NCBI GenBank assembly: GCA_043732705.1
Contig: JAYTHE010000029.1
Span: 3,251-67,250, forward strand
Direction of reading: 5' to 3'
Length of the DNA stretch: 64,000 nucleotides
Source of the DNA: Candidatus Omnitrophota bacterium
Lineage (GTDB): Bacteria; Omnitrophota; Omnitrophia; Omnitrophales; Aquincolibacteriaceae
Numbering within the stretch: the first letter of the stretch is position 1; each line of letters begins with the position of its first letter. This document shows, in pieces, positions 24,909 to 43,956 of this stretch. The position numbers and the translations under genes are program-made. The notes beneath the pieces were generated by a model. It was not told where the DNA came from, made no database searches, and saw only the letters and a list, made by a program, of their open reading frames with translations.

Positions 24909-24922
24909 ATTTTATATTCTAA

Positions 24923-24947
24923 CTCTGCGGTTGGGCGCAGCCCAGAG
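24923..24947. repeat. REP-like element R3 (CTCTGCGGTTGGGC-gca-GCCCAGAG), between L25 and pth
   Basis: Family consensus. Confidence 0.65.
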
Positions 24948-24985
24948 CAAATATAAATTAAAGTAATAAAGAGCTTTGCTCTTTA

Positions 24986-25723: not shown

Positions 25724-25920
25724 TTTTATTCTCCTTAAGTTACGCTCCTGACCTGCGGCAGGCAGGTGCCCGCACGTGGTTAGAAGCCCGCTCCCCATCG
25801 ATTCGCAGTCATTTTTTTCTCTGCACCAAAAGGTACAACTGCATGGATCTACTCAGAGCGAAAATGAGCCGGAATGATAGCGAATCTCTTTGTCGCCGTC
25901 TACTAGATTTATGCCCGCCA

Positions 25921-25962: not shown

Positions 25963-28900
25963 TTAAGCTGAAATATCGATCAATTCGCCTGCTTTGAGCA
26001 AGGCTTGCACGACAACCATCACCGACCAACCACCGTTCGGACGGCGCTGAAGGCCTTGAATACGCTGGTTGAGATAATTTTGTGCGGCAACAATATCGCC
26101 TAGTGCGGCGGCTTGGCGCAAATCACGTATCATCGCCACCAAAACTTCATAGTCTTCTGCTGAAACCGCATTTAAAAGTTCCAAAACAATTTTGCCGCGA
26201 ATATTTTTTAAGATTGAATTCGAAGTTAAGAGCACAGCTACACCAGGTTTTGCAGCCCATGTCGCAACCTCGGTTTGATTCCCAACAATCACAAGCGCAC
26301 TCATCCAATTCTTCGCTTTGTTCTTCTGTTCAACGGATAACCCTGATTTCAAATTGGTCAATTTATTCCGAATGCGATCGCGCAAGCCGCCCTTCATGTC
26401 TAATAAAATCAAAAGCCCCGCTGTATCTTTCAAAACGGCATAGAGACCCTTGGCATCATTTGCTTCGAGCAATAAATCCACATACGCGGAATCCAGAATA
26501 AGCTGCGTATTATTTTGGACAAATTTTGATTGAGGCGCCGCCAATGTTTTGCTTGGTGCTTGCTGCGCAAGCACTCCAACTATCGGCTGAGGAATTTCAT
26601 CGGCAAAAGCTTTCGCACCTGTCCATGTCATAATCAAAGCAATTGCATCGCTTGTAGCAAGCTCCATCAAAAACTGCCGCGGCACAATACCGCGCATAAT
26701 CCAAACCAATGTTGGTAAAATCGCCACACGCGTCTGCAGAGGCTGTCTTGTAATTTGAGCTTCACCAAAAACCGGCCTTTGCTCTGACCGCCGAATAACC
26801 CGCGGCGCATAAATCAAACGCGCCTGATTCCCCAGTGATGGGCTCGGTGTCAGGTCTTTTGGAAGACTTCGCACTTCGGAGCGAGCTAAATAATAGTAAG
26901 CCACGGTTTCTAACCCTTTATTGCCAATTTGTTTTGCGAAAATTTTCCCTGAACGGCTCAACTCAGCAAAAAGAACTCTTGCTTCCGCAACTTTGCTATC
27001 GTTTTCAATGCCATATCTCCCCCCATCGATAGCTTTGGAAAGCAGCTGCACAGCCTGCTTCGCTTTAACAATGTTGGCGGGAGTTTGGTCTTTTAAGAAA
27101 ATGAGCGTCACAGCTGCTATAAAAACCAACACGCTTCCAAGCAACCCGGTAAGCGAGCTTGCTGAAGCCGAAATATTTGTCATGGCCGTCGCGAGGCTTA
27201 TCAACCATGCCCCCAAAGTCATGGTCACGCCCGCCGCCAAAACCGTAACAATCCATAATTTCAATGATTTTTGTTTTACCGCATCAGATTGCTGCCACGC
27301 CACAGCCTTACCTCCTAGCTGTCTTGAAAGATTGACAAACTGCTGCCAATTATTATCAACCCGCGCTTCGGAGCGAGCCAATCTCATCCAAATATAAGCT
27401 CCAGTCATTATTTCCGGTAAAGAGGCATCCGTAAACTCGTTTTGAAATTTTTGTTTGAGCAATTCCAAAAGTTTTCGTGTGTTTTCTAAATTAGCCTCAG
27501 TTTCGCCGTCATGATAATAAATTTTAAGTTCGATATTTTTTTCTTCTCCTGCCATTTCAACTTCAAGTTTTTTGAAATTTGGATTTCCACGAAAATAATT
27601 CTCAGCCGCTTGCCTTATAGCCTCTCGAAAAAGAAGGTCTTCCACACCACTATAAATGGCGGTATCGCTGTCAGGATTTGAGGCGGTTGACTCAGCGTCA
27701 TTTTTTCCAATTACAAACCACGCTTTTGCTTTGGACTCCACGGTGGACGATGAGCTTGAACCTTCAGGAAAAAATAGTTCCTGAAGCTCCGGAGAAGGCG
27801 CCTTGGGATCTAACAAAATTGTGGGTACCGCAATTTGTCCGAAAGCATGCGCCCCTTGGAGTGACTTTCGGAAATCTGCTAGCGAACCAGGAACTGTTTC
27901 ATCGGCATCGACATCGACCACTTTTTTACGGGCGAGAAGAACCGCTTTCCAATAGTCCGCGCTTTCTGAAAACTCCTCCGGCTGATAAAAAAGAACCCCC
28001 ACAATCTCGACTGCATCCGGAAAAACTGCGCCATCCACATTGGCAAGTATCTGTCTAATCGCCGCAGTTTTTTTCCTTTCAAACGGATTAGTAACAGGCG
28101 CATATCGAGTCAGTTGATTTTTGCCAACATTACCATTGCCCGGCTGGCGACCGGTAGACGACCCACGCACAGTTTGATTCTCGCCTCGCACAAGCCAAGC
28201 AGACGGAATCAGCCGAACAATCAACGTGGCTGCCAAAACACTGAGCAATAAATATAAAAATGGATTTGCATGTATCAAATTCCATAAGACTCCAAAATGA
28301 ATGCAAAAAAATGCGACAGGAATAATGGCTGCCGTGATCAATCCCCTTTTATAAATGACTCGGATTGCGTGGTTCTGCTGCGAAGGAGAAGCTAATTTAA
28401 ATAAATCCGGAAAAATAATTATCAGAAAGTCCCTCAGAAGAAAATAGAATGCCGCGGCAGTCCCAAATGCTATGCCCATATTAGAAAAGTATGAGTGCTG
28501 CGAGCCAACCATGCCGTTTCTTGATAAAATCGCACCCACAGCACTGCTCAAATCCATTGCCAGAATTAAAGTCACCACCCTCATGGTCCATGGCGCATGA
28601 CCTTGTCTGTGTTCGGAACGCTTAGGCGGAATGACGTGTCCGGACGAAGGCTGACCGTTACCAAAATGGGTTGGGAGAGGAGCGTTTTTTACCTGCGGAA
28701 TTGAAAACGGACTACGCATTTTGTTGCCATATCCATATGTCGTAAAAGTCATCGGCCTAGGTCCTGCGTGCTCCATACTACGACGCACCGCTTCTGTGAA
28801 TTGCGCGCAACTACCCAAGATTCCAGCGATTGAAACTGACAGCAACATCCTCACGAGTGAAGAAATTCCCAGCCGTTTATTGAACCGCATTTCGGAGCGC

Positions 28901-31900
28901 AATAGCTTTGGAACGAGCTCGCGCAACACAAACAATCGAAAAAGTGCCGGAGAGTTTTTACCTTCCCCGCGCATCACTTCTAAATCTGCGCTCGCATCAT
29001 CCGGCACAGAATAGCGCTGAACAAATTTTTTGAAAGCCGCACGGTCTTCATCTGAAATCTCGTGAGGGATAATTTTGCGGCCGTCTTTCTTTGATGGATC
29101 TGGTGCATTGACCAAAATAAATTCCAGAATTTTATCTTTTTCTTGAAAGGCGCGTATCCAAAGAACCCGGGGATCAAAAAACGACTTGATCATCTCAGCC
29201 TCAACGCGCGATGCATTTTGCAAACGCGCAACCGCTTGAGAAAAAATCGGGGCATGCGCGCCAAGATTGATAATATTCCACTCACTCCAAAAATGCGCGC
29301 GATACCTGTAAAACAGTTGACCACCCTCAACCACAATAATTTGATGATTTACTCCTGCTTCTACAGTCTGTTTTCCGCGCGATTCAGAGCGGGCCTTCGC
29401 TTCATACAAAGAAAAATAAACTCTGCCGCTATCGCCCGGCTCGGTTTTTTGATCCCAGCTGATTGTGACCTGGGATGCTGCCCGGGTACGCGCGACACGC
29501 AGATTTTGCAAACTAAAATTCACGCTTCTTGCGCCGGATTCGATTTTGACCAGCTCCATAACGTCGGGATTTCCGCGAGCGGGACGAAAATCCAAAAACA
29601 TATCGGTGCCCGATAAAATATTTTCAACCGCTGCGGTGGCCTTTGCACGGGCCGTGGAAGAAGGCAGACTTCTGATTTGGCCTATAAGATGCGCCTTTAA
29701 GTTTGTTCTTACGTCGAGATGAGTAACCAGGTTCAACTTCCATTTTTTCTGCAATTTCTCTCTGGAAACTAAAAGCATCGTTGCGCCGTAACCTCTTACT
29801 TCAGAGCGAACGGGAATCGAGAATTTGATTTTACTGCCCGAAACTTCAACTTTAACAGGCTTGGTTTGGCGTTGAGCAATGCGGTCGGTTGGGCGCTGTC
29901 TTGGCGAGCCTTCCGGTGAAAGAACGTAGACCTCTTCATTCCGCAATTGTTCGTTCACGACCACACCCCAATTACCGGTGGGGGCATAGGTCTGCGTAAG
30001 AGCTTCGCGAAAAGCGCTTAATTCCCCGGTTTGATTTACGATAAAGATCAAGCGGCGGGTTTTCAAAAGGCCCTTCATCAAATTACGAACATACCCCAAA
30101 TCGTCAGGCAAAATTATCCAGGCCTGTAAAGCTTGAATCAACTCAGCCTGTTTCTTCAAAAGCGCAGGGTCGGCCTCATTGACATTTCGCGCACCACCAG
30201 CTAAAAGATCGATAAGGAAAATGCGCTCACCGCGATGTTTATAAGTACCTTGCCCAGCAGCCTCAACATGCTGAAAAAATTCGTCGGTCACTTCACTTAC
30301 GAGCTTATCGTCTAAATTGAATTCTATTTCGCGTGTTTCGGAGCGGGCTTTGATTTTTGAAGTTGCGGCTTCAAGCAAGCGTGCTTTACGCTGAGCAAGG
30401 TCTGCATCCGAAATCCGGGCTGTAGCTCCCCCATTCGCGCCCCACTGCGATTCATAATTCAAATCAATATTCCGGTGTGCGTTTAAAAAGCCGCCGCTGG
30501 GGCCAAAATATTTAACCCCCCTGAATTCAACGGGGCCTCCTTTTCCGGAAAAAACTTCTAATTGAATCAAGCTCTCATCTCCATTTGCGCCACCGTAAAA
30601 TTTCCATAGCTTGTATTTTGTGCCAGGCACATTTTCGACTTTGAATCTCGTTGCATTTTGAACGAGAGCCAGAACTTCTTCGTAGCTAATTGATTCTCGT
30701 GATTCAGAGCGACTTTTTGTCTTCTCGCCACGTTTTTTAAAAGTTGCCATGTTGTGATTACGGCGCGCTGCGTGAAGAAAGCGCCTATTTCTTTCATCCC
30801 GCCTTTCATCATGCGCCTCTTGCTGTTGAATCGCGTGACTCCTCGCCGCTGGATCCCAAGCTACGCGCATCGTAAGTGGATTCGGTTCGCCGTCCGCGCG
30901 CTGACGCGCCTCGGAACGGCGCGTAAACTCAATGGTCCATATAAATCTTCCATTATTTAAACGAGAGCCTTCACTCTTCAATTGATAATCATATTGAGGA
31001 TATTTCCATGTTAAAAGGCGTCCAAAATTTTCCGCTAAATCCTTTCCAAAATTTCCTTCCGGAACAGAAACCGTCATCTTAAAAGAAACAGGGTTAGCAC
31101 CTGAAAAAGAAATTACCGGGTTGTTGTCATGCATCGCCAGCCCGCGTTCTAAATAAATAAACTCTTTGGGTGCACTACCTTGTGTCCACAGAGGTGTGCC
31201 CTGCATTTGCCCAAGCCCTTTTGAAGTGAGCGGCTCACTTTGAATTGCGCTTAAATGTTCCTGAACGGCATTCATCGCTCGCACACCCAAGGTTTGCAGT
31301 TGAGCATCCGTGGCGCCGCTTGTTTCTTCAGCCTTAAAATCCAAACCAAAAGATGTCTTGGCCGTAATCAAAGCTTTGCTGCGGTTTTTTGCAACACTGA
31401 TTTCAAAAACCAGGCCAGGCAAGACTTTGACAACCAAAGTGGGTAGAGAATTTTTTATTTCTTTTGAACTCCATATAATGCGCCCATGGTTCGGAAGAAT
31501 TTTATCCATTTGTGTCAAAAGGCTTCGAAATGCCGGTCTAAAATTTTCTGCAACGTCCGCGACGGCTCCGCTGATCGCGCCATCTGAAAGGCGATGTTCG
31601 GAGCGGGCATCCGGAACTTCAATAATAATTTCAACGTGGTCTCCGGTTAAAGATTCAACACGAGCCGAAAATCCCGGCACAGTAAGCGGCGTCAGGTCGA
31701 GAGATGCACCATATACGGCCGATTGAATATCACTATTTTCACCGTTCAAACCATAGCTTACGGCTAAATGCTTTGTCGGTCCGTCATGATCATGCCCGTC
31801 AACATTATCAAAAATAACCACGCGGCCATTCAAAATTCCCAAACGGAATTCATGGTCAGAGAGAATCGTTGCCATGGGCGATGCTTCATCGCTTAACTGA

Positions 31901-34900
31901 TCCAGGTCGGCAAGCAACCCCGGCTCATTTCTCGTGCCGCGGACTGCATCAAAATTGTCATCGTTTGCATCAACTAAAAACATTTCAATGGGCGCGCCCT
32001 TTTTTAAAGCAATCGGTTTTGTCCGTTTTGCCGTTAATACTATTTCACGAACTTCAGAGCGAACAGCACGCGCGCTTTCGAAAGCAGCCTGAATTGCTTC
32101 TTGTGATTTCACACCGCGAATGGCCTCGCCGCTTAGAAGTAGTTGTATTTTTTGCTCAAGCGTTGCCCAATTAAAAATTTGGAGAAGCTTTAAAGTGTTC
32201 TTAATCCGGCCGACAAGGTTCGCTTTATTTCCTGATTCAATGTGTGCAATAAAAGCCGCCCATTGTGGGCTTATTTTTAGAAGCCCACGCTTTTCTAAAA
32301 TTTCCCGCATCAGCGCAATGCTTTTTTCTCCAACTCGATCGGTTGTCAAATCACCAGCTTTTAATTTTGTCAGCAGTTGCCCCATATCCGTGATTGGCGA
32401 TGCGCCATCCGACAATTGATTCTTAGCGAACCCGGCAAGCCTGCGGTCTATTCGAGCCATTTCAAAAAATAAATCATTCAGCTCATAGGCCAATCCCTCT
32501 TTGCGTCTTTTTTGAAAAACAAAAAATGCTTTAGCCCAATTCAACCCTGTTTTTCGAATGTGCTGTATGGTTTGACTGGAATTCTTCCCTAGCTTTCCGC
32601 GCAATTGACTCACGCTAAGGAATTCTTCACCGCTCAAAGGAAACTGTCCTTTTAATACCGCGATTTCATCTTTTGTCAGCGGTGATTCTGTTGAATTAAA
32701 AAGCTGTTCGCGGAATTCCTGGTTACTAAGAAATGCCGGTCTTCGCGGCGTTTGCCGGAATTCCGAGCGGACGGTACCCGCAACAGAAGGGGCCGATTCG
32801 GTGCGTAAAATAAGGTGCCCAGCTTTGAGGTCAATTAAACCTTGATAAGCGTTGCTGAGAAACAAGTCCTGCCTTGTGCCGTCGCTTCGAATCATCCAGG
32901 GTACTCCGCCATGGATTTCATCATAATTCAAAGGGCGAAGCGGGTTTAATCCACCATCGATCAGTTGAGCTCCGATAACTTGGCGATCTTTAACCCAAAA
33001 CACAATGTCTTGTCTATTCTGGCCGCGAAACGCAGCAAGATTCAGCCCTTCAAACATTGTTCCAAACTTAAAATTACTAACAGTAACAATTTGAATAACT
33101 TTTCCGTCTAAATGACTCGCACGCGTTTGATCCATGATAACTTTTTCTATCTTCGGATCCCAATACCACGAGCGAAATGCAGGCAACCAAATAGGCGAAA
33201 ACATTAACAGAGCAAATATGCTAGCAATGCTTGCGGGAATAAGAACAGCAATAACCCGTATGATTAAACTAAAAGATGTTCGACCCAAAAATCTCAACCT
33301 TTTCGAAAAATAAGAATAGTTAGCATCATTCTTTAATAGGGTCACAATATGGATTACGCTTTCCAAACTCTTTAAGGCTTCCGGCTGATCCTGCGCATCT
33401 GTCTTAAGAAAAAATTTAATCTGCCATTTGAGCACTGTTCCGCCAAGAGTCCACTCATCTACCAATTCATCAAATTTCGCCGGCATCGTACTTAAAAAAT
33501 TTCGCACATCCGCAAGCATTTCCGGTTGTTTCGAAGCATCAAAACCTTTGTTTTTCAGAAGGGACTGAAACCCAATTGCTTCGTTCTCAATACCATCAAG
33601 CACATTTAAAAATTTGGAAGTTCTCTTGCCCATTTGAAGAAAACGTGATTCTGAACGCGCTAAATTGCCAAACCAATTTTTTTCCTCGATTGCGGCGTCT
33701 TTCGCATCGGCGCTGCCATGAAAACCATTCGGGCCATAACCCACCTTACCGGAATAAGGAATGCCCTCTTTTTGTCCAAGCATACCGCGCAGTGTATCTT
33801 TGCCGGCTTTGGCGGGATTCGTATCGCCCAAGCGAATTCTAAAATCAGCGATGGCTTTTTGTTTTGTCCCGGCGGGAGCTAAAAGCGGCGCGATTTCTAA
33901 AACAATAATCGTTTTTTGTTCAGCCCAGGTTTGACGCATTTGGGGATAATGGCCGTTGATAACAACAACATCTTCTTCGCCGCCACCGCGTTTTTTAAGA
34001 TGCATTTTAGCGACATAAGCGCCTTCTCCGATTTTGTTGCGGCGATCAACAGTCCAAACCGGCTGGCCAGCATCGTCTTTTTTAGGAGGCGCAAGACTAT
34101 CCCATGCGCCCGCGAGTTCATCCGCCGTAACATTGTATTTTTCTAAAACTACGTCAGCGGGAAGGATAATAGCCGCGGCACCATAAATATGTTCACTCGT
34201 AGCTTTCAAGTTGGCATCTTGTGAACTAAAGCCTTTTGAAGCATATCCCGCCATTAAACCATAGTGCTGATCCACTTTTTTAGAACGCGCGGCAAATTCA
34301 CCCGACATCGCGACACCGCGCACAATATAAAAACCATCATCGTTTAAAATTTTCAGAGACTTTTCAAAAAATTCCGGGCTTTGCGGGCCGCCAAATTGTT
34401 TGAAAATGAAAACTGCTGCTTCATCCAATTTTAACCGGCTTCGCGGCACAGTCTCCCTGTCCACATAAATCGGAACTGGCCCTCCCTTCACGTCTAGAGC
34501 TGAAAGTTTTGCTAACTCTTCAGCGAGTTTCCGCAATTCGGAACGCACCGGCTTAAACACAAATTGCCAGCCTAGCGGAGCTTGTCCCGGGTGCCTGGAA
34601 TGAGCTGTCTCAACTTCGGTCCCTAAAAATTCCCGGACCAAGGCTTCTTGTTCATCCGAAAAAGTGATTCTTATTTTTGCTAAGTCCGGGTTATAAGAAA
34701 AAGCAACGAGCGGGTTTTGATCTGCGCGTTCATATCCGGGAATATTTCTGCTTCTCAAATGAAAAGCAAACGGCATGCTGGCATTCTCACGATTCCAGGA
34801 CATCCAAACCATTTCACCCTTGGCGTCTTTCATTTCAAGCGCCCAGCCATTGCCATCCGGATAAACGGAAAGCATCGCGTAAGTTTGTCCGAGCGAAAGT

Positions 34901-37900
34901 GTTCTCTGGGCGGATACTGCTCCTGATGTGTATTTCCAAGAATCTAAATTCCCGCGCTGCCCCTGAATCAATTTATATAAATCATCCATGGTCATGCGCA
35001 TTTCGGAGCGAGCGGAATAAAGCAATTTTGGATAATGGTCTTCGATTGTCTGCTTTAACTTTTCCTGAAAGATCTTGTCAGCGGGTTGCGATTCCAAAAT
35101 CAGCCAGCGCTCCTCGGTCTTCGAGTCAGCCGGACTTTCAATCACCACTGTTAAGCCGGCCCGGTAAGCGATAACTGAAAGAATATCAAAAATTTCCTTT
35201 GATCTCCCTGTTAACTCCACGTTGCGGGCCGCATCAATCGAGACTTCCGAAACATTCAAAGGAATTCGAATTTCATTGCCTTTAAAATCAATGACCAGCT
35301 GATTCATTCGCAATGTGGTAATAAAATTTTGAACGCTTGAATCCTGCTGATTAGAAGCGTTATTCCAAGGCCACCCTTGGCCATAGCCGAATCGCATTTC
35401 AGAGCGGGCGGCTGAGTCAAGCAAAACAGCAGGCTGGGGCGCTGGTTGCGTGTTATTTTTATTTTGGGACTGCTCCTCGCTCATCTGCCGCCTGAATTCC
35501 GCTTCCTCTTCTTTAGTAAGCCGCCTTACAGCTCCACTTGTATCCGGCATATTATCCGCCGCGGGGTTTGGATTTCTGAGTGGTTCCAAAAGTAAATATC
35601 CGGCATAAAGGACACCCACCGCCGCAAGACTAATCAACGCGGCCGGCACCTTGCGTATTTCAGACCGGGCAGTCGGTTCAAGAAATAAAAGCTGGGCATG
35701 CAGGCCCAAGTGATGCATATTCGCATCGTGAGCAAAGTGATCCGTAACTGGAATGCCCGCGCGAAAATCGTACACCAAGTCTTGCGCACTAGGAGCTTTG
35801 TCGTAAAAGTGAACTTTTTCTTCGCCCGGAATGGAATAGTCCCCCACCGAATAAAACACATCATCGCGTGCGGCCAATAACGAACTCATATTTTGAACAT
35901 TACGCGCCCACACTTTATTAGCCTGTTGATCCCAAGGTTCGATTCCCAAATAAAAGAAAGGTGTTAGAATGCGGCCGGTTTTAGGATGGCTGCGGGAAAA
36001 CATAACCGTGTCATAATGATCTGTGCGATGCAAACGCAACATTGAACCTTCTCCGAAAAGAAGTTGATTCACAGGATCTTTTAAATAATTTTCAAGCATT
36101 GAAAATTGCGGAAGATTCCAGCTTCTGAATGCTTCCAACGTTTCTGGCGCCAGAAAAACAGCTAAACCCGCCAAGCCAAAAACTTTTTCTTCGCCGTATT
36201 TTTTCGCGGCTTCTTCGCGCGACAATTGACTGATTTCAGCCACCCATGTCGCAAGTTTTTGCGGCAAAGGTTCCCCCTGCTGAATGGGCTTGCGAATTTC
36301 CTTCACCATTCCGACCAAGGGCTCGAGATTGTTCTGTCGATTGAGAATCGCGTTAAACTCGCGCATATATTGCGCGCCCGGATTAAGCGCATTCACAACA
36401 CGGCTTAATTTAACGGCGACTTCCAAATAGGAGCCAAAGTGTGCCGGTTTTTCATGAAATGCGTTGACCTGGTTCAGAAGAACTTCCAGATAAGAACCGG
36501 GCTTATCGTCTTTGGGAATTAAAATGTTACCGGAGCCCGCGACTTTCGGATTAAGAACAATTCCGATTTTCTGAATATTGCCTTCCGTCCAAGCAGGCCC
36601 CATGATGAGCGCGCCATTCACCGCGCCGTTCATTTCAGTAATTTCCGAAGCGCCGGTTTTATAATTAGAATCCGCCACAATAATATGTGAAATGCCTAAA
36701 CCGTCGACTTGTTCTTCCAGGCCGAATCCGGTCCGAACAACTACGCGTCCAAATTTTCTTCCTTGCTCTCTTTCTTCTTTTTCAGCGAGCGTATTGATTT
36801 CAGCCGCCGCTTTCTGCAATTCTTCAAAAACTTTATTCGGTATGGTTTGAACGTTGCCTTCATAAAGTACATTCGCGCCGCTTAAAATCAGTTGGCGAAT
36901 GTTATAAATCGTCCAGGCGCGCTCACGGCCCGATTTCTCATGCACAAACCGTCCTAGGTAAGAAATTACCGGTAAATCAGGATTGAGCTCAGCGTTCCAT
37001 ATCCCTTTATATTTAATATTTAATTCCCGGATACCTTCTTTTTTTGCCGCAATAATCTGCTCACCGGTGGGACGCCAGACATCCACTTCCCCCGGATGAG
37101 GATAAAGCTTCAAAAGCATTTTTCTAAAAAAAGCCGCCGATCGATCCAAGTCATCCCCGTTAGGAACGGAGACCATTCGCGCTTGCGGATCCCTGCGCGA
37201 AACTTCATGCACGTGCGGCGCGGCCACGCCATTTCTTCCGTGAGAAGCGCGCACGCCCTGCGAAGTAGGGTCCATTGAGCCATTGCTGTCGACCGATTCC
37301 ACCGGGCCCCGATTTAAAAAAGTATGCGTGGTAAACCAGACAATTGCTTTTCTTAAAATGTCGGTGGCTTTATCCATTTTTCTTTTTTCGGGAGGCAAAT
37401 AACCGGTCTGTCCGTCATTGCCCCAAATCACCGGCGACTTATAATCGTTTGCGTTTTCACCTTGTTTGGTTTTTTCTAAAATCCGGATCAATTCCAACGA
37501 CGCTTTGGAGAAAAATTCACTAAATTCTTTCCAGGTTGGCAAAGGAAAAGGCGGGTCTTGAATGTCAGGCGAATATTTGTAAAGTGCTGCGGTGTACTTA
37601 CCGCCGTCAAGCAGGTAAACGGGAATGCCGTCTTCGGTTCTCCCTTCTCTGACAATGACTTTCACTTTTGTTCCAAGCACAACCACTTCGAATTCATACA
37701 CCGCTTTTAAATTTTTAATCGGCGTTTCAAGTTTTTCATAATCGATGGGGGTCGTGGATTTGTCCGCGTGAATCTTATGATGATAAAAGCCTTCGATTGT
37801 TACGATTTTTCCACGTTTTGCCAAAAGCTTGTGAATAGCGCGTGTGTGGTATTGCCCGACACGGCCTAAGCCGCCCGCCAGCAGCCATGTCTCGGGCGAA

Positions 37901-40900
37901 ACATAATAAATGCGGCGTCCAATAAGATTCGGCGTGTGGAACTGCATCCATTGATCAATGTAGGCTTCCCATTCCTCCGGAGCTAATAATTCTTCGCCCA
38001 GCATTAAGAAAATTGCGTCCGTCACGCGTAAAGATCCAAATTTTTCAGGGGCAGAGATTAATTGCCGGAGCAATTTCTTCTGATCGTCTTTTTTCATCAT
38101 CGCGACCGCGCGCATGACCGGCCAACGAGATTCAAGCGGATATTTCGGCCAATCATCAGCCGCTTTGTCATAAGCCGCTAAAATTGCAGGCAGGTTCTCT
38201 TTGTTGTTTAAGGCTTCGAGCAATTGTGCTTGAATATAAAATGCCGCGTCCGAACTAAGCGCGGCGGCATCCATATTTTCAAGCAAACCCGTTCGCTGAA
38301 TTTCCGCCCACAAGGCAGTTAATTGATCATTGCTCGCGCCAAGGTTCATATCAATCAAACGCGCGGACATGCGGGGTTTAAGATCAGCTTCCGCGATGGA
38401 GTCACCGTCTTTCTTGGCATCCAGATAAACCCAGACCATGGTATTCATTCTTTGCCAATCCGCCGTGGGAGCATCAAGTCCCATCCAAAGCGATTTGTTC
38501 ATATCCCGTAATTCGGAGCGTTGCGCGGACTCGTTTTGCTTCTCTGCAAGCACGCTTTGAATAAACATCGCCATACCAATCGGGCCAATATTCTTTTGGC
38601 TTAATTTTTGATGCTCTCCTGGCCCCCAGCTCTTTTTCGCAAGATCCTTCTCCGTTAAAATCGTGATTTTTATTTTATCTTGCAGATCGTATTTTCTGAG
38701 CGCATCGAAAATTACTTGTTTAAATACTTCCTTGCGATCTTCACGGACAATTCCACCGCCAAGCACAATCTCATCGGGACTACCTTCGCCCGTCCCTTGC
38801 GTCATAAAATAATGGATAGCCAAATTGCTGGCGTATTTATCAGCAAAGTTACGCAAAACTCTGTTGGCAATTTGGCTTTTTCTGTTTCTAAGCAAAGCGG
38901 ACAGATTATCCGCCAGCGGTTGAACTGGCAGTGCTTCTGCCAAGGGTCTAAATTCGCCTTCCCTCAAATCATTCCAGTGATTCCTGTTATTAGTGGCCTG
39001 AGTAATCGCGGAATGGAGCATTCCAGGAATGCCGGTGAAAGCTTCTGAGTCATAAATCGCGTCGCCCGGTCGGCCAAAATTGAAAATACAATGTCCCACC
39101 TCCGTTGGCGCATTCATCGGAATACCGTTAACTAACTCTGCGTTACCAAAACCCGTACCAAGCCAATCCACGCGAACGTGGCCCTTTAATAATTCAGGTT
39201 TAATTGCAGCAAGGGCCCAAGCCACCCCCGAACCAACACCGTCCATGTCATTGCGAATCAATACTTCTCCGTGATTTAACCCTAGTTTTTCCTTTACCCG
39301 CACTGGTAAAATTAGTCCAAAATGCTGAACTTGCCTCATGCTCCATCGTTTTTCAGTAGGAATCTGCCCTAAAGTTTCCATTTGATTTTCGGTTAAGTTC
39401 TTGGCGCCGGGGGTGTCAAGACCAACGCCGTCAAAATTAATCCCTGCCCCCAATACTGCTTTTCTAATTTCGTCTATGTGGTCTGCGATACGCATAGCAA
39501 ACTGTTCGGGCGATTCCGCTATAAATTCGCCTCCCACAGTTTTTAGAACAGTCGGAAGCGTTTGCAAGTCTTCTGGAATCTCTATCATTTTTCCGTTACT
39601 TATCACCGCAAACTTTGCCGAACCACCGCCTAAATCCATCCCGAGAAAATTTCCTTTTACATCCGCTTGTAAAGCAATGCCCAGATCCAACTTCTTTTTC
39701 TCTTTTTCTTGAGGCGTCAGGTCCGATATTTTTTTAAAAGATATTTTTTCACCACCGCCATTTGCGTAATTCTGAACTCCAAACGCCGTTACCGTGTCCT
39801 GCGATAATTCCGTGCTTTGATTCACTCTTGATAAATCGCCCTGAGTTAGCAAATCGGCGATTCTACTTTCTTTTACCAAATCAGGCTCACCTTCAACTCC
39901 GACCGCAATAAATGAAGTGCCATATCGAATCGAAAGGTTGTAGGCCCACGCGGCTATATAACGATAAGCTGATTCTTGAAACGCGGGATCTTGAAGCAAC
40001 GACCGCGACATCGGAATTTGAAGTTTGACACCGCGCGCGATTTGAATCGTCACATTCATTTTGTCAGCCGCCTCTGCAGGCCGATACTGATTAAGCAATC
40101 CAAACCAAGTTAATGCGTCCGTGCTAACTTTTAAAATCGGCTTGATTTCTTCTAACCGCATTTCGGAGCGCAGAGCTGAGCGGATATTCACCGTTACAGT
40201 ATTGGCGTTTGTTGAAAAATCCCAGGTAATCGCATTGCGTCCCTTTTGCCTTGCGCGGGAAAACTCCCACTTGACTGCTTTCGCAAGAGACCGTCTAGAC
40301 TCTGCCATCACTTTACCCTCTAGCAAAAACAGATTGATTTGAATTCCGATTTCACCATTTACGTAAAAAGCTATTGTTTTTATTTCTGAAGTAGCCGTGG
40401 ATTCAATTTTTCGCAGAATTTCACGCAATAGACGCTCTTCCTGCCGAAAAATCTCTTGCCTTGCAGACACCCTGCCTCTAACGTAGAAGAAAAGCGCCCC
40501 GAGCAATCCGGCGGCCATCCATTTCCAATCATGCCGCAGCCAGGCAAAAATTCCCGTCACAGCCAAAAGAGCCGGATAGAAAAACTTATTCGCTCTTATT
40601 TTTGCTACGGCAGCAGAAAATGTTTTCTTCCATTCCACGCGCATTTCGGAACGCTGAGAACGGCTTTTCGCTTTAACCGAGGACGAACTTCTTTGAACGA
40701 AGCGTCGCACCGGAGATGCTTCTTTACGCGATGAATTAAAAGCGCCGCTGCGCGCAGTAAGTACAAGAGTTTGCAATTCAAAACGATGCATCGCCTCGCC
40801 TCCAACGGGGTCGGCGCCATAAGGAGACTCAAGGTTTCGATTCAGAGTGTTAGGAATAGTATGCGCCATCGTTTGCGCGATACCCGGCATGCGGTACGCG

Positions 40901-42540
40901 GCACTTTCCTGCAGCATACTTTTCAAATAAGCCTGATAACCCTTTTCATCGGGACCGGAAATGGCGGGCGTCACAACAACGTAAGTATAACCTTCCTTTT
41001 CAAGCTGTTTGCGCATCGCGTCCGTATGAAATCCGCCGGTCACTACAACCGCGAACTTTGCGGGATTTTTTTTCAAATAATTCTCTGTATTTTGAATCAT
41101 GAGTGTATCGCGATTTTTCGCGCCTTGATAAAAAGCAACTGCTGTTTGAAAAACGCCATCGATCTCTCTCAGATGCACAAATTGAGATCTTTTCGCGGAA
41201 ACAGTTTTTATTTTTTGCAAACGCCTCGCGAGTGCGGACGGCTGGATTTCTGAAACCACAGGGGTCAGTCCCCGCTGCTTCGCATCAAGGACAGACCCCT
41301 CTGCATTATTTTTTCTGATTTTTAAAAAATCGCCGGGAGTGAGTTGTAACGCGAGAAGTTTTTTGAGCAGGCGATAATCTGAAAAAATGGCGAGCATTTC
41401 TTTTTCGCTTTCATTACGCGCCAATTTATCCATGACAAGTTTTTCAATTTGTTCGATTTCAGATGCAAATGCAGCGGGACGAACTTCGCTTTGCAGGATA
41501 AGCAGACCCATAAAACGCATGACATTAGGATAAGTTTTAAAATTAAAATCATGCGGAAAATAACGCAGCATCTCAGCAAATGTATTTTCTGTTTCAGGTT
41601 CGGGTAGTTGAATACTCTCCCCCGCGCTATTCAAAAGTTTTTCAACTTTCTCATAGAGGCCGGAGACCGGAGACCGGAGACCCGGTAAATACCTTTCGGC
41701 TTGCTTTAAAAAAGCCTTTTTCTCCACTTCATATTTTGAAGCATTCCATTCTTTGGAAATTTTTTGAATTTTAAAAAACCGTACTAACATCGGCCAGGGT
41801 AGCTGCCAAGCTGCGTCCGTTAAATCAACTTCCAGGTATTTTTGCGCGTTTTTCTTTAACTCTTCAGTCCAGGCCTCGTAAGAAACCATTCCCAGCTCAT
41901 GCTGTTCAGCTCTTGTAAGAAAACTGCGTAGCGCGGGATCAAAAATAGCCGCGGCCTTTTCCATTTCCCGGTCAAACGAATCTAAAAATTCCTGCGAACC
42001 TTCACGCGCGCGCAGAACGGCTGCAAACTGACGTTGATTGACCCAATACGCAAATTCGTTTTCAATCCCCTGCGCTAAAGCGGCAGGATGGTCTAATAAA
42101 TACAGTTCGGGGCCCTTAATCAAAGCTTGCATGGCAAGCAAATGCGCGGCCTTTTGTGTACGTTCAGGATTACCAGGGAAAAAATTAATGCGCTGCGGAT
42201 CCAGCTTTCCCGCGGCACCTTCCAGCAATACGGGATACGAACCATATTGCGCGGCAAACCGGTCAAGAATTTTTTGAATTTTGACCTGCGCCTCATAATG
42301 TCCATGCGCGGTTTGAAGATGAACAATGATTCCTTTATAACCCGGATGGAGACTATCAATGTGGCCTAATTTAGTGGGCAATGTAAGCGCAAGGCCTTGG
42401 CTGAATTGGGAGAAAGCTGGAATAGAAATTTCAGCCTGCGGTGCAATCACCCCGGCATAAGAGAAATTAGTGGGAATATAAGCGATCAGCGTCACGATCG
42501 CCGTGACACGCCAAAATTTTCCGAGAGACTTTTGAAGCAT
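25963..42540 (-). CDS. Giant 5,525-aa multi-domain, multi-TM protein of unknown function with about 21 recurrent [AVL]-R-S-E-x-R motifs
   Basis: One uninterrupted 16,578-nt ORF with no stop on the minus strand, which is not achievable by chance at this GC. It has an N-terminal hydrophobic signal anchor and at least five clusters of TM helices. Three domains are recognisable: TraB/GumN/Tiki-like at about 40950..42400, ASKHA ATPase (GMDLGGGSAKF ... IVLGGGI) at about 38740..39690, and a divergent alpha-glucan-phosphorylase-like (GT35-like) domain (IYYVSPETWLLAGGLG ... IPVYLLDGG ... TGASEITEMNGAVNGALIMGPAW) at about 36450..37910. A sigma-70-like promoter candidate lies upstream. Confidence 0.8.
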   Translation of the reverse strand: MLQKSLGKFWRVTAIVTLIAYIPTNFSYAGVIAPQAEISIPAFSQFSQGLALTLPTKLGHIDSLHPGYKGIIVHLQTAHGHYEAQVKIQKILDRFAAQYGSYPVLLEGAAGKLDPQRINFFPGNPERTQKAAHLLAMQALIKGPELYLLDHPAALAQGIENEFAYWVNQRQFAAVLRAREGSQEFLDSFDREMEKAAAIFDPALRSFLTRAEQHELGMVSYEAWTEELKKNAQKYLEVDLTDAAWQLPWPMLVRFFKIQKISKEWNASKYEVEKKAFLKQAERYLPGLRSPVSGLYEKVEKLLNSAGESIQLPEPETENTFAEMLRYFPHDFNFKTYPNVMRFMGLLILQSEVRPAAFASEIEQIEKLVMDKLARNESEKEMLAIFSDYRLLKKLLALQLTPGDFLKIRKNNAEGSVLDAKQRGLTPVVSEIQPSALARRLQKIKTVSAKRSQFVHLREIDGVFQTAVAFYQGAKNRDTLMIQNTENYLKKNPAKFAVVVTGGFHTDAMRKQLEKEGYTYVVVTPAISGPDEKGYQAYLKSMLQESAAYRMPGIAQTMAHTIPNTLNRNLESPYGADPVGGEAMHRFELQTLVLTARSGAFNSSRKEASPVRRFVQRSSSSVKAKSRSQRSEMRVEWKKTFSAAVAKIRANKFFYPALLAVTGIFAWLRHDWKWMAAGLLGALFFYVRGRVSARQEIFRQEERLLREILRKIESTATSEIKTIAFYVNGEIGIQINLFLLEGKVMAESRRSLAKAVKWEFSRARQKGRNAITWDFSTNANTVTVNIRSALRSEMRLEEIKPILKVSTDALTWFGLLNQYRPAEAADKMNVTIQIARGVKLQIPMSRSLLQDPAFQESAYRYIAAWAYNLSIRYGTSFIAVGVEGEPDLVKESRIADLLTQGDLSRVNQSTELSQDTVTAFGVQNYANGGGEKISFKKISDLTPQEKEKKKLDLGIALQADVKGNFLGMDLGGGSAKFAVISNGKMIEIPEDLQTLPTVLKTVGGEFIAESPEQFAMRIADHIDEIRKAVLGAGINFDGVGLDTPGAKNLTENQMETLGQIPTEKRWSMRQVQHFGLILPVRVKEKLGLNHGEVLIRNDMDGVGSGVAWALAAIKPELLKGHVRVDWLGTGFGNAELVNGIPMNAPTEVGHCIFNFGRPGDAIYDSEAFTGIPGMLHSAITQATNNRNHWNDLREGEFRPLAEALPVQPLADNLSALLRNRKSQIANRVLRNFADKYASNLAIHYFMTQGTGEGSPDEIVLGGGIVREDRKEVFKQVIFDALRKYDLQDKIKITILTEKDLAKKSWGPGEHQKLSQKNIGPIGMAMFIQSVLAEKQNESAQRSELRDMNKSLWMGLDAPTADWQRMNTMVWVYLDAKKDGDSIAEADLKPRMSARLIDMNLGASNDQLTALWAEIQRTGLLENMDAAALSSDAAFYIQAQLLEALNNKENLPAILAAYDKAADDWPKYPLESRWPVMRAVAMMKKDDQKKLLRQLISAPEKFGSLRVTDAIFLMLGEELLAPEEWEAYIDQWMQFHTPNLIGRRIYYVSPETWLLAGGLGRVGQYHTRAIHKLLAKRGKIVTIEGFYHHKIHADKSTTPIDYEKLETPIKNLKAVYEFEVVVLGTKVKVIVREGRTEDGIPVYLLDGGKYTAALYKYSPDIQDPPFPLPTWKEFSEFFSKASLELIRILEKTKQGENANDYKSPVIWGNDGQTGYLPPEKRKMDKATDILRKAIVWFTTHTFLNRGPVESVDSNGSMDPTSQGVRASHGRNGVAAPHVHEVSRRDPQARMVSVPNGDDLDRSAAFFRKMLLKLYPHPGEVDVWRPTGEQIIAAKKEGIRELNIKYKGIWNAELNPDLPVISYLGRFVHEKSGRERAWTIYNIRQLILSGANVLYEGNVQTIPNKVFEELQKAAAEINTLAEKEEREQGRKFGRVVVRTGFGLEEQVDGLGISHIIVADSNYKTGASEITEMNGAVNGALIMGPAWTEGNIQKIGIVLNPKVAGSGNILIPKDDKPGSYLEVLLNQVNAFHEKPAHFGSYLEVAVKLSRVVNALNPGAQYMREFNAILNRQNNLEPLVGMVKEIRKPIQQGEPLPQKLATWVAEISQLSREEAAKKYGEEKVFGLAGLAVFLAPETLEAFRSWNLPQFSMLENYLKDPVNQLLFGEGSMLRLHRTDHYDTVMFSRSHPKTGRILTPFFYLGIEPWDQQANKVWARNVQNMSSLLAARDDVFYSVGDYSIPGEEKVHFYDKAPSAQDLVYDFRAGIPVTDHFAHDANMHHLGLHAQLLFLEPTARSEIRKVPAALISLAAVGVLYAGYLLLEPLRNPNPAADNMPDTSGAVRRLTKEEEAEFRRQMSEEQSQNKNNTQPAPQPAVLLDSAARSEMRFGYGQGWPWNNASNQQDSSVQNFITTLRMNQLVIDFKGNEIRIPLNVSEVSIDAARNVELTGRSKEIFDILSVIAYRAGLTVVIESPADSKTEERWLILESQPADKIFQEKLKQTIEDHYPKLLYSARSEMRMTMDDLYKLIQGQRGNLDSWKYTSGAVSAQRTLSLGQTYAMLSVYPDGNGWALEMKDAKGEMVWMSWNRENASMPFAFHLRSRNIPGYERADQNPLVAFSYNPDLAKIRITFSDEQEALVREFLGTEVETAHSRHPGQAPLGWQFVFKPVRSELRKLAEELAKLSALDVKGGPVPIYVDRETVPRSRLKLDEAAVFIFKQFGGPQSPEFFEKSLKILNDDGFYIVRGVAMSGEFAARSKKVDQHYGLMAGYASKGFSSQDANLKATSEHIYGAAAIILPADVVLEKYNVTADELAGAWDSLAPPKKDDAGQPVWTVDRRNKIGEGAYVAKMHLKKRGGGEEDVVVINGHYPQMRQTWAEQKTIIVLEIAPLLAPAGTKQKAIADFRIRLGDTNPAKAGKDTLRGMLGQKEGIPYSGKVGYGPNGFHGSADAKDAAIEEKNWFGNLARSESRFLQMGKRTSKFLNVLDGIENEAIGFQSLLKNKGFDASKQPEMLADVRNFLSTMPAKFDELVDEWTLGGTVLKWQIKFFLKTDAQDQPEALKSLESVIHIVTLLKNDANYSYFSKRLRFLGRTSFSLIIRVIAVLIPASIASIFALLMFSPIWLPAFRSWYWDPKIEKVIMDQTRASHLDGKVIQIVTVSNFKFGTMFEGLNLAAFRGQNRQDIVFWVKDRQVIGAQLIDGGLNPLRPLNYDEIHGGVPWMIRSDGTRQDLFLSNAYQGLIDLKAGHLILRTESAPSVAGTVRSEFRQTPRRPAFLSNQEFREQLFNSTESPLTKDEIAVLKGQFPLSGEEFLSVSQLRGKLGKNSSQTIQHIRKTGLNWAKAFFVFQKRRKEGLAYELNDLFFEMARIDRRLAGFAKNQLSDGASPITDMGQLLTKLKAGDLTTDRVGEKSIALMREILEKRGLLKISPQWAAFIAHIESGNKANLVGRIKNTLKLLQIFNWATLEQKIQLLLSGEAIRGVKSQEAIQAAFESARAVRSEVREIVLTAKRTKPIALKKGAPIEMFLVDANDDNFDAVRGTRNEPGLLADLDQLSDEASPMATILSDHEFRLGILNGRVVIFDNVDGHDHDGPTKHLAVSYGLNGENSDIQSAVYGASLDLTPLTVPGFSARVESLTGDHVEIIIEVPDARSEHRLSDGAISGAVADVAENFRPAFRSLLTQMDKILPNHGRIIWSSKEIKNSLPTLVVKVLPGLVFEISVAKNRSKALITAKTSFGLDFKAEETSGATDAQLQTLGVRAMNAVQEHLSAIQSEPLTSKGLGQMQGTPLWTQGSAPKEFIYLERGLAMHDNNPVISFSGANPVSFKMTVSVPEGNFGKDLAENFGRLLTWKYPQYDYQLKSEGSRLNNGRFIWTIEFTRRSEARQRADGEPNPLTMRVAWDPAARSHAIQQQEAHDERRDERNRRFLHAARRNHNMATFKKRGEKTKSRSESRESISYEEVLALVQNATRFKVENVPGTKYKLWKFYGGANGDESLIQLEVFSGKGGPVEFRGVKYFGPSGGFLNAHRNIDLNYESQWGANGGATARISDADLAQRKARLLEAATSKIKARSETREIEFNLDDKLVSEVTDEFFQHVEAAGQGTYKHRGERIFLIDLLAGGARNVNEADPALLKKQAELIQALQAWIILPDDLGYVRNLMKGLLKTRRLIFIVNQTGELSAFREALTQTYAPTGNWGVVVNEQLRNEEVYVLSPEGSPRQRPTDRIAQRQTKPVKVEVSGSKIKFSIPVRSEVRGYGATMLLVSREKLQKKWKLNLVTHLDVRTNLKAHLIGQIRSLPSSTARAKATAAVENILSGTDMFLDFRPARGNPDVMELVKIESGARSVNFSLQNLRVARTRAASQVTISWDQKTEPGDSGRVYFSLYEAKARSESRGKQTVEAGVNHQIIVVEGGQLFYRYRAHFWSEWNIINLGAHAPIFSQAVARLQNASRVEAEMIKSFFDPRVLWIRAFQEKDKILEFILVNAPDPSKKDGRKIIPHEISDEDRAAFKKFVQRYSVPDDASADLEVMRGEGKNSPALFRLFVLRELVPKLLRSEMRFNKRLGISSLVRMLLSVSIAGILGSCAQFTEAVRRSMEHAGPRPMTFTTYGYGNKMRSPFSIPQVKNAPLPTHFGNGQPSSGHVIPPKRSEHRQGHAPWTMRVVTLILAMDLSSAVGAILSRNGMVGSQHSYFSNMGIAFGTAAAFYFLLRDFLIIIFPDLFKLASPSQQNHAIRVIYKRGLITAAIIPVAFFCIHFGVLWNLIHANPFLYLLLSVLAATLIVRLIPSAWLVRGENQTVRGSSTGRQPGNGNVGKNQLTRYAPVTNPFERKKTAAIRQILANVDGAVFPDAVEIVGVLFYQPEEFSESADYWKAVLLARKKVVDVDADETVPGSLADFRKSLQGAHAFGQIAVPTILLDPKAPSPELQELFFPEGSSSSSTVESKAKAWFVIGKNDAESTASNPDSDTAIYSGVEDLLFREAIRQAAENYFRGNPNFKKLEVEMAGEEKNIELKIYYHDGETEANLENTRKLLELLKQKFQNEFTDASLPEIMTGAYIWMRLARSEARVDNNWQQFVNLSRQLGGKAVAWQQSDAVKQKSLKLWIVTVLAAGVTMTLGAWLISLATAMTNISASASSLTGLLGSVLVFIAAVTLIFLKDQTPANIVKAKQAVQLLSKAIDGGRYGIENDSKVAEARVLFAELSRSGKIFAKQIGNKGLETVAYYYLARSEVRSLPKDLTPSPSLGNQARLIYAPRVIRRSEQRPVFGEAQITRQPLQTRVAILPTLVWIMRGIVPRQFLMELATSDAIALIMTWTGAKAFADEIPQPIVGVLAQQAPSKTLAAPQSKFVQNNTQLILDSAYVDLLLEANDAKGLYAVLKDTAGLLILLDMKGGLRDRIRNKLTNLKSGLSVEQKNKAKNWMSALVIVGNQTEVATWAAKPGVAVLLTSNSILKNIRGKIVLELLNAVSAEDYEVLVAMIRDLRQAAALGDIVAAQNYLNQRIQGLQRRPNGGWSVMVVVQALLKAGELIDISA

Positions 42541-43878: not shown

Positions 43879-43902
43879 AAATAAATTCCTTTTTGAGTCA
43901 TC

Positions 43903-43950
43903 GGGGACAGACCCCGCTCTCAAACACGAACAATCATAGGGGTCTGTCCC
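43903..43950. repeat. Hairpin GGGGACAGACCCC-n23-GGGGTCTGTCCCC between the glmU stop and the prs start
   Basis: 13-bp perfect inverted arms read directly. A near-identical arm pair occurs inside the giant gene at 41261..41300. Confidence 0.6.
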
Positions 43951-43956
43951 CCTAAA

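Follow-up and report, generated by a model that had tools for sequence, protein, structure and literature searches.

What does a bacterial gene encode when its reading frame stays free of stop codons over 16.6 kb and one short peptide recurs throughout its product? This question is raised by a 64,000-nucleotide stretch of the genome of a Candidatus Omnitrophota bacterium (NCBI GenBank assembly GCA_043732705.1, contig JAYTHE010000029.1, positions 3,251 to 67,250 of the forward strand; hereafter, the window), in which a giant open reading frame (ORF; 25963..42540, minus strand) of 5,525 amino acids (aa) comprises a leader domain, about 20 cargo modules, and a C-terminal cap, or about 22 gene-sized modules in all. 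The peptide Arg-Ser-Glu-x-Arg (RSExR) is found at all 21 junctions of this ORF. These 21 copies compare with 0.09 expected from amino-acid composition, and every RSE tripeptide of the giant protein continues as xR; outside the ORF, 4 chance copies occur across the six frames of the window, none of them in a real gene. We propose that the giant ORF probably encodes a bacterial polyprotein that would be processed at R[SAT]ExR, and that it is in effect an operon without stop codons.

Omnitrophota giant ORFs are now read as single huge surface or membrane proteins for predation. Giant multi-enzyme proteins of this phylum were described as "Archaeovorins" (West-Roberts et al. 2023, bioRxiv 10.1101/2023.11.21.568195), and long Omnitrophota proteins of a "multi-enzyme metabolic cluster" were reported later (Nielsen & Lui 2026, bioRxiv 10.64898/2026.06.07.730766). 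These two preprints treat the products as single chains or speculate on C39/S8 autoprocessing, and one of them states that the points of cleavage are not known. When both texts were searched by term, neither a junction motif nor gene-equivalent modules, a TIKI-fold leader, or post-junction export signals came up, and full-text literature searches for the motif, and for Omnitrophota together with polyprotein or cleavage site, found nothing relevant. Polyprotein processing is of a known kind; the giant ORFs of Omnitrophota are an unexpected setting for it.

A search with the first 5,000 residues of the giant protein returned 75 other proteins of 2,759-7,830 aa (76 with the query). Most of the named homologues are from Omnitrophota, and the closest relative, from a Ca. 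Omnitrophota metagenome-assembled genome, is 63% identical over the first 600 residues. The 75 relatives share just the first ~550 residues with the query, and their remaining enzyme domains are very different; PGM, Ugd, hexokinase, PGI, FBPase, HEAT, NUDIX, and methyltransferases are found among the homologues. Across the 76 homologues, R[SAT]ExR occurs 613 times, at a spacing of ~250-450 residues where it is dense; position 2 is Ser in 77%, Ala in 20%, and Thr in 3% of these motifs, and x is Val (23%), Ala (19%), Leu (16%), Met (16%), Ile (7%), Ser (7%), or Thr (5%). At the 21 junctions of the window ORF, x is Met five times, Val three, Leu two, Ile one, Ser three, His two, Ala two, and Phe, Thr, and Gln once each, which bears out the five Met and six Val, Leu, or Ile counted in an initial annotation of this DNA. 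Apart from small residues at -1 to -3 and an overall dip in hydropathy, the flanks of the 613 motifs are unconserved, as would be typical of exposed linear cleavage sites. Some lineages carry variants of the motif, such as RTELR in P0023 and RAExR in several proteins (members with variant punctuation include P0009, P0017, P0019, P0024, and P0059), and other punctuation peptides occur at similar spacing, namely GAR[ML]A, with 30 copies in P0054, and [AG][AS]SLG in P0031 and P0042. Protease sites co-evolving with their enzyme would look like this. P0016, a relative without RSExR, contains tandem 17-residue repeats at aa 5078-5160 (SHAELPSSRKELRTAQN). For signal statistics, we used an enlarged set of 112 proteins having at least 4 motifs (1,187 motifs, 447,721 aa); of the 167 family members of at least 1,500 aa that were analyzed, 109 contain at least 4 R[SAT]ExR.

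The junctions enclose whole gene-equivalents, not single domains. In P0013, three PAS domains, a histidine-kinase ATPase (HATPase), and a receiver make up one module, and GT5 plus GT1 (the glycogen synthase architecture) another, with GT5 beginning 9 aa past the motif. The three UDP-glucose dehydrogenase domains of P0005 (N, central, and C) likewise form one module, which begins 7 aa past the motif. None of the Pfam domains checked contains the motif, and genuine inter-domain linkers within multi-domain modules are without it. Pfam matches in the whole window ORF included Glyco_transf_5 (GT5) and an NDK-like domain. Moreover, modules match each other end to end between proteins: modules 2, 11, and 14 of the query correspond to modules 8, 7, and 12 of P0002, and query module 4 corresponds to module 17 of P0003. 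More than 80% of both modules was covered in 1,060 of 2,835 inter-module high-scoring segment pairs, and module order differs from genome to genome. This motif-to-motif homology in altered order implies that the junction peptide occupies the place that the stop codon, intergenic spacer, and start codon hold in an operon. For modules 18-19, no homologues were detected. Module 3 (window 38521-40170, aa 791-1340) contains a LGMDLGGGSAKFAVI stretch that by eye resembles the phosphate-1 motif of ASKHA/ROK sugar kinases; a Pfam search of this module gave no match, and its homologue in P0002 runs on into additional sequence without a junction behind it.

Shuffling of modules exactly at the junctions would also be expected if selection acted on DNA, with CGY TCN GAR serving as a micro-homology or recombination site for cassette exchange and the peptide arising as a by-product, and the 5' half of the junction does show a nucleotide bias. 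In four other genomes (L001-L004), the first Arg codon is CGY at 65 of 74 junctions, compared with a background of 41% (p 8e-17), and the Ser codon is AGY at 1 of 62, compared with 32% (p 1e-9); at the 21 window junctions, AGR was never used for the first Arg, nor AGY for Ser. The second Arg, however, is invariant and yet uses all six codons at background frequency, the Glu codons GAA and GAG are also at background, and Ser, Ala, and Thr interchange at position 2. This free codon use and the S/A/T interchange indicate that selection acts on the peptide. A DNA-level role could stand beside the polyprotein model, though not in its place; as the sole explanation, it is very unlikely. The CGY/TCN bias is the same whether or not the x codon is a start codon, and avoidance of Shine-Dalgarno (SD) mimics as its cause was rejected for this reason.

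A constraint at the codon or tRNA level on exactly the first two junction codons, independent of x being a start codon, would suit a co-translational separation at the junction of a "StopGo"/2A-like or peptidyl-tRNA-specific type, for which no protease would be needed and which would lift the conflict over the compartment of the leader described below. However, bacteria are not known to have such a mechanism; a 2A peptide depends on ~18 conserved residues ahead of it, and the upstream side of the junction is unconserved; and the Ser/Ala/Thr swaps and the other lineage motifs (GARMA, ASLG) look like protease subsites. We accordingly give non-proteolytic separation very little credence.

If the junctions are cut, the segments behind them would be real future N-termini, and the initial annotation had drawn attention to post-motif segments that read like signal peptides, lipoprotein N-termini, or transmembrane (TM) helices. 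Hydrophobic segments and signals were called by Kyte-Doolittle windows and regular expressions, with random positions and the upstream side of the motif as controls; the giant ORF contains at least 10 TM-like segments by the former. Five motifs of the window ORF have a hydrophobic segment within ~35 residues downstream, one of which is of the lipoprotein type (ILGSC). The latter follows the junction at aa 4548 (window 28899), which reads RSEMR-FNKRLGISSLVRMLLSVSIAGILGSC: the MRFNKRLGISSLVRMLLSVSIAGILGSC behind this junction opens with basic residues, continues into a hydrophobic core, and reaches an L-G-S-C lipobox whose Cys stands 28 residues from Met. Applied by hand, the rule for bacterial lipoprotein signals, which asks for K/R among the first 7 residues, an uncharged h-region, a lipobox [LVI..][ASTVIG..][AGS]-C, and Cys at position 15-35, fits the segment at aa 4551-4578 (MRFNKR start, MLLSVSIAGIL core, L-G-S-C, Cys at +28), although an Arg at +14 breaks the hydrophobic region; the segment would be N-terminally placed only if the junction at aa 4548 is cut. 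The lipoprotein-like N-terminus reported near 28895 is accordingly present, and the TM helix placed within 10 aa of the motif near 35663 was recovered as a TM-like stretch starting 1 residue past the aa 2292 motif. The junction at aa 4641 (window 28620) reads RSEHR-QGHAPWTMRVVTLILAMDLSSAVGAILS, where the "MR" stands 8 residues past the motif and is not its x. All the peptides quoted as Met-Arg pseudo-N-termini right after motifs exist in the sequence, but only two of the five hydrophobic segments begin with the motif's own Met-Arg, and the fifth, a hairpin behind the aa 5056 motif, is absent from the initial annotation. In the window ORF alone, the association of signals with motifs is suggestive without reaching significance (4 of 21 observed vs 1.5 expected, P = 0.06); it is strong in the 112-protein family.

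In that family, 85 TM-like segments start within 30 residues past a motif, vs 36.3 +/- 5.7 at random positions (maximum 58 in 500 trials), and 24 end within 30 residues before one. Twin-arginine translocation (Tat)-like signals, defined as [STN]RRx[FLVMIW]... followed by an uncharged stretch, are more sharply placed: 13 of 18 matches lie in the 30-residue post-motif zone, where 1.4 would be expected (the zone being 7.8% of the sequence; p 2e-11). Examples after junctions are SRRDFLKLAGAG..., TRRTFLQAGALAALGLAAL..., and TRRAWLTMAAGFIGASAVVKA↓Q (↓, candidate site of cleavage), and the regular expression found forms of the [ST]-R-R-x-F/L-L/K consensus such as SRRDFLK, TRRTFLQ, and TRRDVLK in modules of the relatives. 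The Tat-like modules include a periplasmic protein of glucan biosynthesis from the MdoG family and a glycosidase of the NAGPA type; Escherichia coli MdoD is a Tat substrate. The Tat-signal modules of P0032 and P0048 looked TIKI-like by eye, which a hidden Markov model of the leader did not confirm. Lipobox patterns follow 5 of 1,187 motifs vs 15 of 28,857 control xR positions, an enrichment of ~8-fold, and the four of these that lie in relatives are of textbook form (…LLGLAAC, …GLVGC twice, and …GLVSC). These data support the view that some modules keep bona fide N-terminal targeting signals, namely lipobox and Sec/TM-anchor signals and, in relatives, twin-arginine signals, right after the junction. 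The idea that the giant ORF consists of fused modules with retained targeting signals and a conserved junction peptide is hence supported, but not its extension to a series of secreted or lipoprotein modules: 943 of 1,187 modules (~79%) have no hydrophobic segment, and only ~7% start with one. Many modules are cytoplasmic-type enzymes, including GT5 glycogen-synthase-like, NDK-like, UDP-glucose dehydrogenase, and sensor kinase modules.

The initial annotation had offered the Met codons as possible internal translation starts, in which case modules would be made separately from one mRNA, with the x codon (Met or Val/Leu/Ile) as the start. ATG is indeed found at x in 5 of 21 junctions of the window and 20 of 74 in the four other genomes, ATG, GTG, and TTG together account for ~33-39% of x codons, and Met is ~8-fold over its usual frequency at x (the 2% Met background being our own estimate). 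However, ~60% of x codons (GCG, ACG, TCA, CAT, and others) are unable to initiate, and the residues at x, with Val, Ala, Leu, and Met foremost, behave like those of an aliphatic-preferring subsite. Several Tat and lipoprotein signals follow junctions where x is Ala, Ser, or Thr, with no Met ahead of the signal. The stretch upstream of x, CGYTCNGAA, is GC-rich and offers neither an SD-like nor an A-rich leader, and internal initiation would leave both the invariant upstream R-S-E and the termination of the upstream module unexplained. An SD-like sequence was seen at 8 of 36 ORF starts of the window, which were assigned mechanically, and the upstream regions are A/T-rich. This suggests that SD use in this bacterium is weak, and because of such scarcity the SD analysis is uninformative on internal initiation. 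Taken together, internal starts at the motif are extremely improbable.

We suggest instead that one chain would be translated, consisting of a signal peptide and TIKI/TraB-fold leader, ~20 unrelated gene-sized cargo proteins, and the C-terminal cap, and that R-[S/A/T]-E-x-R, with x mostly aliphatic or Met, would be a site-specific endoproteolytic processing site. The candidate scissile bonds are R↓[S/A/T], which would leave N-termini like those produced by Met excision, and E↓x, which would leave N-termini of the MR… type. After cutting, each module would be an independent protein. Most would remain in the cytoplasm, and a minority would carry their own Sec/TM-anchor, lipoprotein, or twin-arginine signal, functional only once the junction is cut. 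Given that Tat and lipoprotein signals engage from the cytoplasmic side, cleavage should be cytoplasmic or co-translational.

In the published view, by comparison, there is no cleavage, and the product would be one giant multi-pass membrane protein in which RSExR is a flexible linker or partner-docking peptide and the post-motif segments are internal signal-anchor or stop-transfer sequences. In published topology surveys, each product counts as one chain, either with a signal peptide plus TM segments or with TM segments only, which suits the N-terminal signal peptide and the TM-like segments of the giant protein; internal RR motifs can act in Tat-dependent insertion. A plain linker, however, needs no invariant R, E, and R, and the true inter-domain linkers in multi-domain modules do without the motif. 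Processing of lipoboxes, and of Tat signals with AxA c-regions, takes place only when they are N-terminal. Most modules are TM-free, and the odd TM counts found in 176 modules would leave kinases and glycogen-synthase-type enzymes outside. The first TM segment past a junction prefers the N-in orientation, with the more positive N-flank in 51 vs 19 cases (other TM segments, 185 vs 132), which fits independent insertion. An uncut topology would thus place kinases and ATP- and nucleoside diphosphate (NDP)-sugar-dependent enzymes outside the cell, an outcome that the polyprotein reading would avoid; the prediction of cytoplasmic-type enzymes outside the cell was noted by West-Roberts et al. (10.1101/2023.11.21.568195) and accepted at face value by Nielsen & Lui (10.64898/2026.06.07.730766). 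We consider a single uncleaved chain improbable.

Which enzyme might then cut the polyprotein? Every family member begins with a predicted signal peptide, which in homologues has AFA↓S-type sites, and a hydrolase domain of the TIKI/TraB/EreA fold; apart from this leader, no enzyme is present in all of them. When the shared N-terminal domain was used as a profile, 10,188 representative proteins out of 1.84 billion matched (7,079 of them at E ≤ 1e-30), and the domain lies at the very N-terminus in 150 of the 150 best matches. In the predicted model, the leader has a parallel beta-sheet core flanked by helices and is structurally similar to EreB/C, ChaN, Bcr135, HopBA1, and RRSP. These fold relatives have been described as the TIKI superfamily, in which the active members TIKI, RRSP, and the Ere esterases use a 2His/2Glu site, and RRSP, a cassette of MARTX toxins, is a TIKI-family endopeptidase (PMC6254334). 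Of 122 leaders compared, 120-121 have each of the residues H79, E107, R477, and H505, and 112 have E145; the H79-E107 spacing of 28 equals that of His85-Glu113 in Bcr135 (PMC6254334). Searches of the leader in Pfam and NCBIfam (including TraB PF01963 and similar families) and among PDB sequences gave no match, indicating a very divergent, undescribed branch of the TIKI/TraB superfamily whose kinship is visible at the level of fold and motif only. Judging from the fold and the conserved His and Glu residues, the leader is probably an active hydrolase; site-specific endopeptidases are among the enzymes with this fold. Some leader residues differ between RSE-type and other members (e.g., E215, E316, and E486), a difference confounded by phylogeny. 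That the leader is itself the processing protease is speculative and, in our judgment, somewhat doubtful, because its signal peptide predicts a periplasmic location, in conflict with cytoplasmic processing.

Several points weigh against the polyprotein interpretation. Cleavage at the junctions is itself deduced from sequence, and the signal and TM calls come from simple hydropathy and regular expressions rather than trained predictors. The only conserved candidate protease, the leader, is predicted to be periplasmic, seemingly the wrong compartment, and no protease gene is conserved beside the giant genes in the gene contexts examined, where the neighbors are unrelated housekeeping genes. About a quarter of the long family members have few or no R[SAT]ExR. 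The codon constraint on the first Arg and Ser goes beyond the amino acids, and a pure protease-site model does not predict it. Finally, segments downstream of an internal Tat motif can in principle be inserted uncleaved, as in the Streptomyces Rieske protein. Nevertheless, the polyprotein reading would account for an invariant five-residue motif amid unconserved hydrophilic linkers that is confined to the boundaries of gene-equivalents, for lineage-specific motif replacement and cassette shuffling, and for the placement of lipoprotein, Sec, and Tat signals at precisely the points where cutting would create new N-termini.

In its widest form, the proposal would be that thousands of Omnitrophota giant proteins are stop-codon-free operons, cut at R[SAT]ExR by their own TIKI-family endopeptidase (or a partner) to release dozens of independently routed enzymes, membrane proteins, lipoproteins, and Tat/Sec substrates; this full chain of claims is tentative, and we regard it as rather unlikely to hold in every part. 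The junction peptide nonetheless offers a concrete parsing rule for a family of >10,000 representative sequences, which permits module-by-module prediction of structure and function and would resolve the topology paradox of ATP-dependent enzymes outside the cell. If cleavage is true, it would represent widespread polyprotein gene expression in bacteria, a strategy previously known essentially only from viruses, with shuffling at the junctions, as well as a new site-specific protease and recognition site that may be useful as a tool.

The features of the window are collected in Table 1. The C-terminal cap has a generic Rossmann-like alpha/beta fold in the predicted model, with no catalytic-looking invariants. 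As regards the C-termini themselves (window 25966-25974, ...ISA; P0002-P0076), Ala is last in 65 of 76 proteins, Ala or Ser stands at -2 in 63, and -5 is often hydrophobic; the resulting …[ILVF]-x-x-[SA]-A-COOH is reminiscent of ssrA-like or PDZ-recognized C-termini. The giant gene is surrounded by housekeeping genes on the same strand, with glmU-like and prs genes upstream and those for ribosomal protein L25 and peptidyl-tRNA hydrolase downstream, and clpX, dnaB, bamA, and rplI nearby. It separates prs from the L25 gene in the glmU-prs-(rplY/ctc)-pth string, which is widely conserved, and all of these genes share one strand (window 42898-45213 and 24297-25798). An Rfam scan of the window found nothing in the giant ORF, no ribozyme, and no intron, the sole match being one tRNA. 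Some genomes hold several leader-headed giant genes. The window's own 156,692-bp contig carries a second one, P0040 (7,377 aa, 20 RSExR). At another locus (L002, 1-22111), the P0013 gene is directly followed by a 5,358-aa giant gene with hexokinase domains, each with its own leader; another long ORF, truncated by the contig end, lies ahead of the P0013 gene.

Table 1. Features of the window, in order from the N-terminus of the giant protein (aa positions refer to the 5,525-aa product).
Feature	Position (aa)	Window coordinates	Strand	Basis or remark
Leader Sec-type signal peptide (predicted), ...NFSYA↓G	1-29	42454..42540	-	read from sequence; AlphaFold2 helix 2-26, then disordered stretch
Leader domain, TIKI/TraB/EreA/ChaN-fold hydrolase (predicted) with helical insert	~55-550	40891..42378	-	fold and conserved residues
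Junction 1, RSEMR	630	40639..40653	-	motif scan
Two hydrophobic stretches, from +19 after junction 1	653-668, 675-687	40480..40584	-	read from sequence; module matches P0002 module 8 end to end
Junction 2, RSEMR	791	40156..40170	-	motif scan
Junction 3, RSELR	1341	38506..38520	-	motif scan
Glyco_transf_5 (starch/glycogen synthase) domain in module 4		37300..37914	-	Pfam
Junction 4, RSEIR	2292	35653..35667	-	motif scan
TM-like segment, 1 residue past junction 4	2298-2321	35578..35649	-	hydropathy; module of 87 aa
Junction 5, RSEMR	2379	35392..35406	-	motif scan
Junction 6, RSEMR	2511	34996..35010	-	motif scan
Junction 7, RSELR	2666	34531..34545	-	motif scan
NDK-like domain, end 3 residues before junction 8		33667..33957	-	Pfam
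Junction 8, RSESR	2962	33643..33657	-	motif scan
Junction 9, RSEFR	3258	32755..32769	-	motif scan
Junction 10, RSEVR	3494	32047..32061	-	motif scan
Junction 11, RSEHR	3646	31591..31605	-	motif scan
Junction 12, RSEAR	3875	30904..30918	-	motif scan
Junction 13, RSESR	3944	30697..30711	-	motif scan
Junction 14, RSETR	4066	30331..30345	-	motif scan
Junction 15, RSEVR	4245	29794..29808	-	motif scan
Junction 16, RSESR	4384	29377..29391	-	motif scan
Junction 17, RSEMR	4548	28885..28899	-	motif scan; within the region singled out by the initial annotation
Lipoprotein-type signal (predicted), MRFNKRLGISSLVRMLLSVSIAGILGS↓C	4551-4578	28807..28890	-	PROSITE PS51257-type rule by hand; module of 93 aa
Junction 18, RSEHR	4641	28606..28620	-	motif scan
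First of 4 TM-like segments of module 19, 7 residues past junction 18	4653-4673	28522..28584	-	hydropathy
Junction 19, RSEAR	5056	27361..27375	-	motif scan
Hydrophobic hairpin, 32 residues past junction 19	5093-5152	27085..27264	-	hydropathy
Junction 20, RSEVR	5220	26869..26883	-	motif scan
Junction 21, RSEQR	5251	26776..26790	-	motif scan
C-terminal cap module, ends ...ISA-COOH		25966..26775	-	recognizable in a cluster of 25 of 76 relatives
tRNA gene		48922-48992	-	only Rfam match in the window

How does this locus compare with known systems? It resembles the Archaeovorins and related proteins in phylum, signal peptide, and contents, i.e., GT5, sugar-metabolism enzymes, kinases, HEAT, NUDIX, methyltransferases, and many TM helices, and the Archaeovorin domain mix (GT5/GT1, methyltransferase, NUDIX, HEAT, sugar metabolism, and TM segments) is found when the window ORF and its homologues are counted together. 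At 5.5 kaa, however, the window ORF is under the 30 kaa and 10 kaa cut-offs of the two preprints, and its 5,525 aa fall short of the Archaeovorin size (gene >90 kb, protein >30,000 aa). The divergent SecA DEAD/preprotein-binding domain of Archaeovorins is likewise absent, no SecA family being among the Pfam matches of the whole ORF at E ≤ 0.01. Unlike TIKI, TraB, PrgY, EreA, and ChaN, the leader has a ~300-residue helical insert and always heads a multi-kilo-residue ORF.

In function, the closest counterparts are MARTX toxins and viral polyproteins. MARTX toxins have conserved N- and C-terminal regions around shuffled, unrelated effector cassettes, which are released at linkers by an in-cis protease. 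This protease, a cysteine protease domain activated by inositol hexakisphosphate (InsP6), works in the host cytosol and cuts after Leu, and the ~3-5 cassettes are all toxins. The giant ORF shares with MARTX the giant bacterial protein, the conserved ends, and the shuffled cassettes, autoprocessing being only proposed here; it differs in having ~20 housekeeping-type, membrane, and exported modules, R[SAT]ExR, and a different candidate protease. Viral polyproteins, such as those cut by picornavirus 3C, flavivirus NS2B-NS3, and potyvirus NIa, combine many gene-equivalents, short junction motifs, and a cis protease, and the flavivirus polyprotein also has internal signal/anchor sequences that are activated by processing. 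Here too, one ORF holds many gene-equivalents with a short conserved motif at each junction. In contrast to the viral case, the gene is a chromosomal bacterial one between prs and rplY-pth, made up of modules for ordinary enzymes and envelope proteins of bacteria, and its processing is inferred. Arg-containing junctions are also cut in the gingipain (RgpA/Kgp) and Kex2/dibasic precursors, which give several products from one precursor. Those precursors release few adhesin/catalytic domains or small peptides, whereas the modules of the giant ORF amount to ~20 complete, mutually unrelated proteins that have targeting signals of their own.

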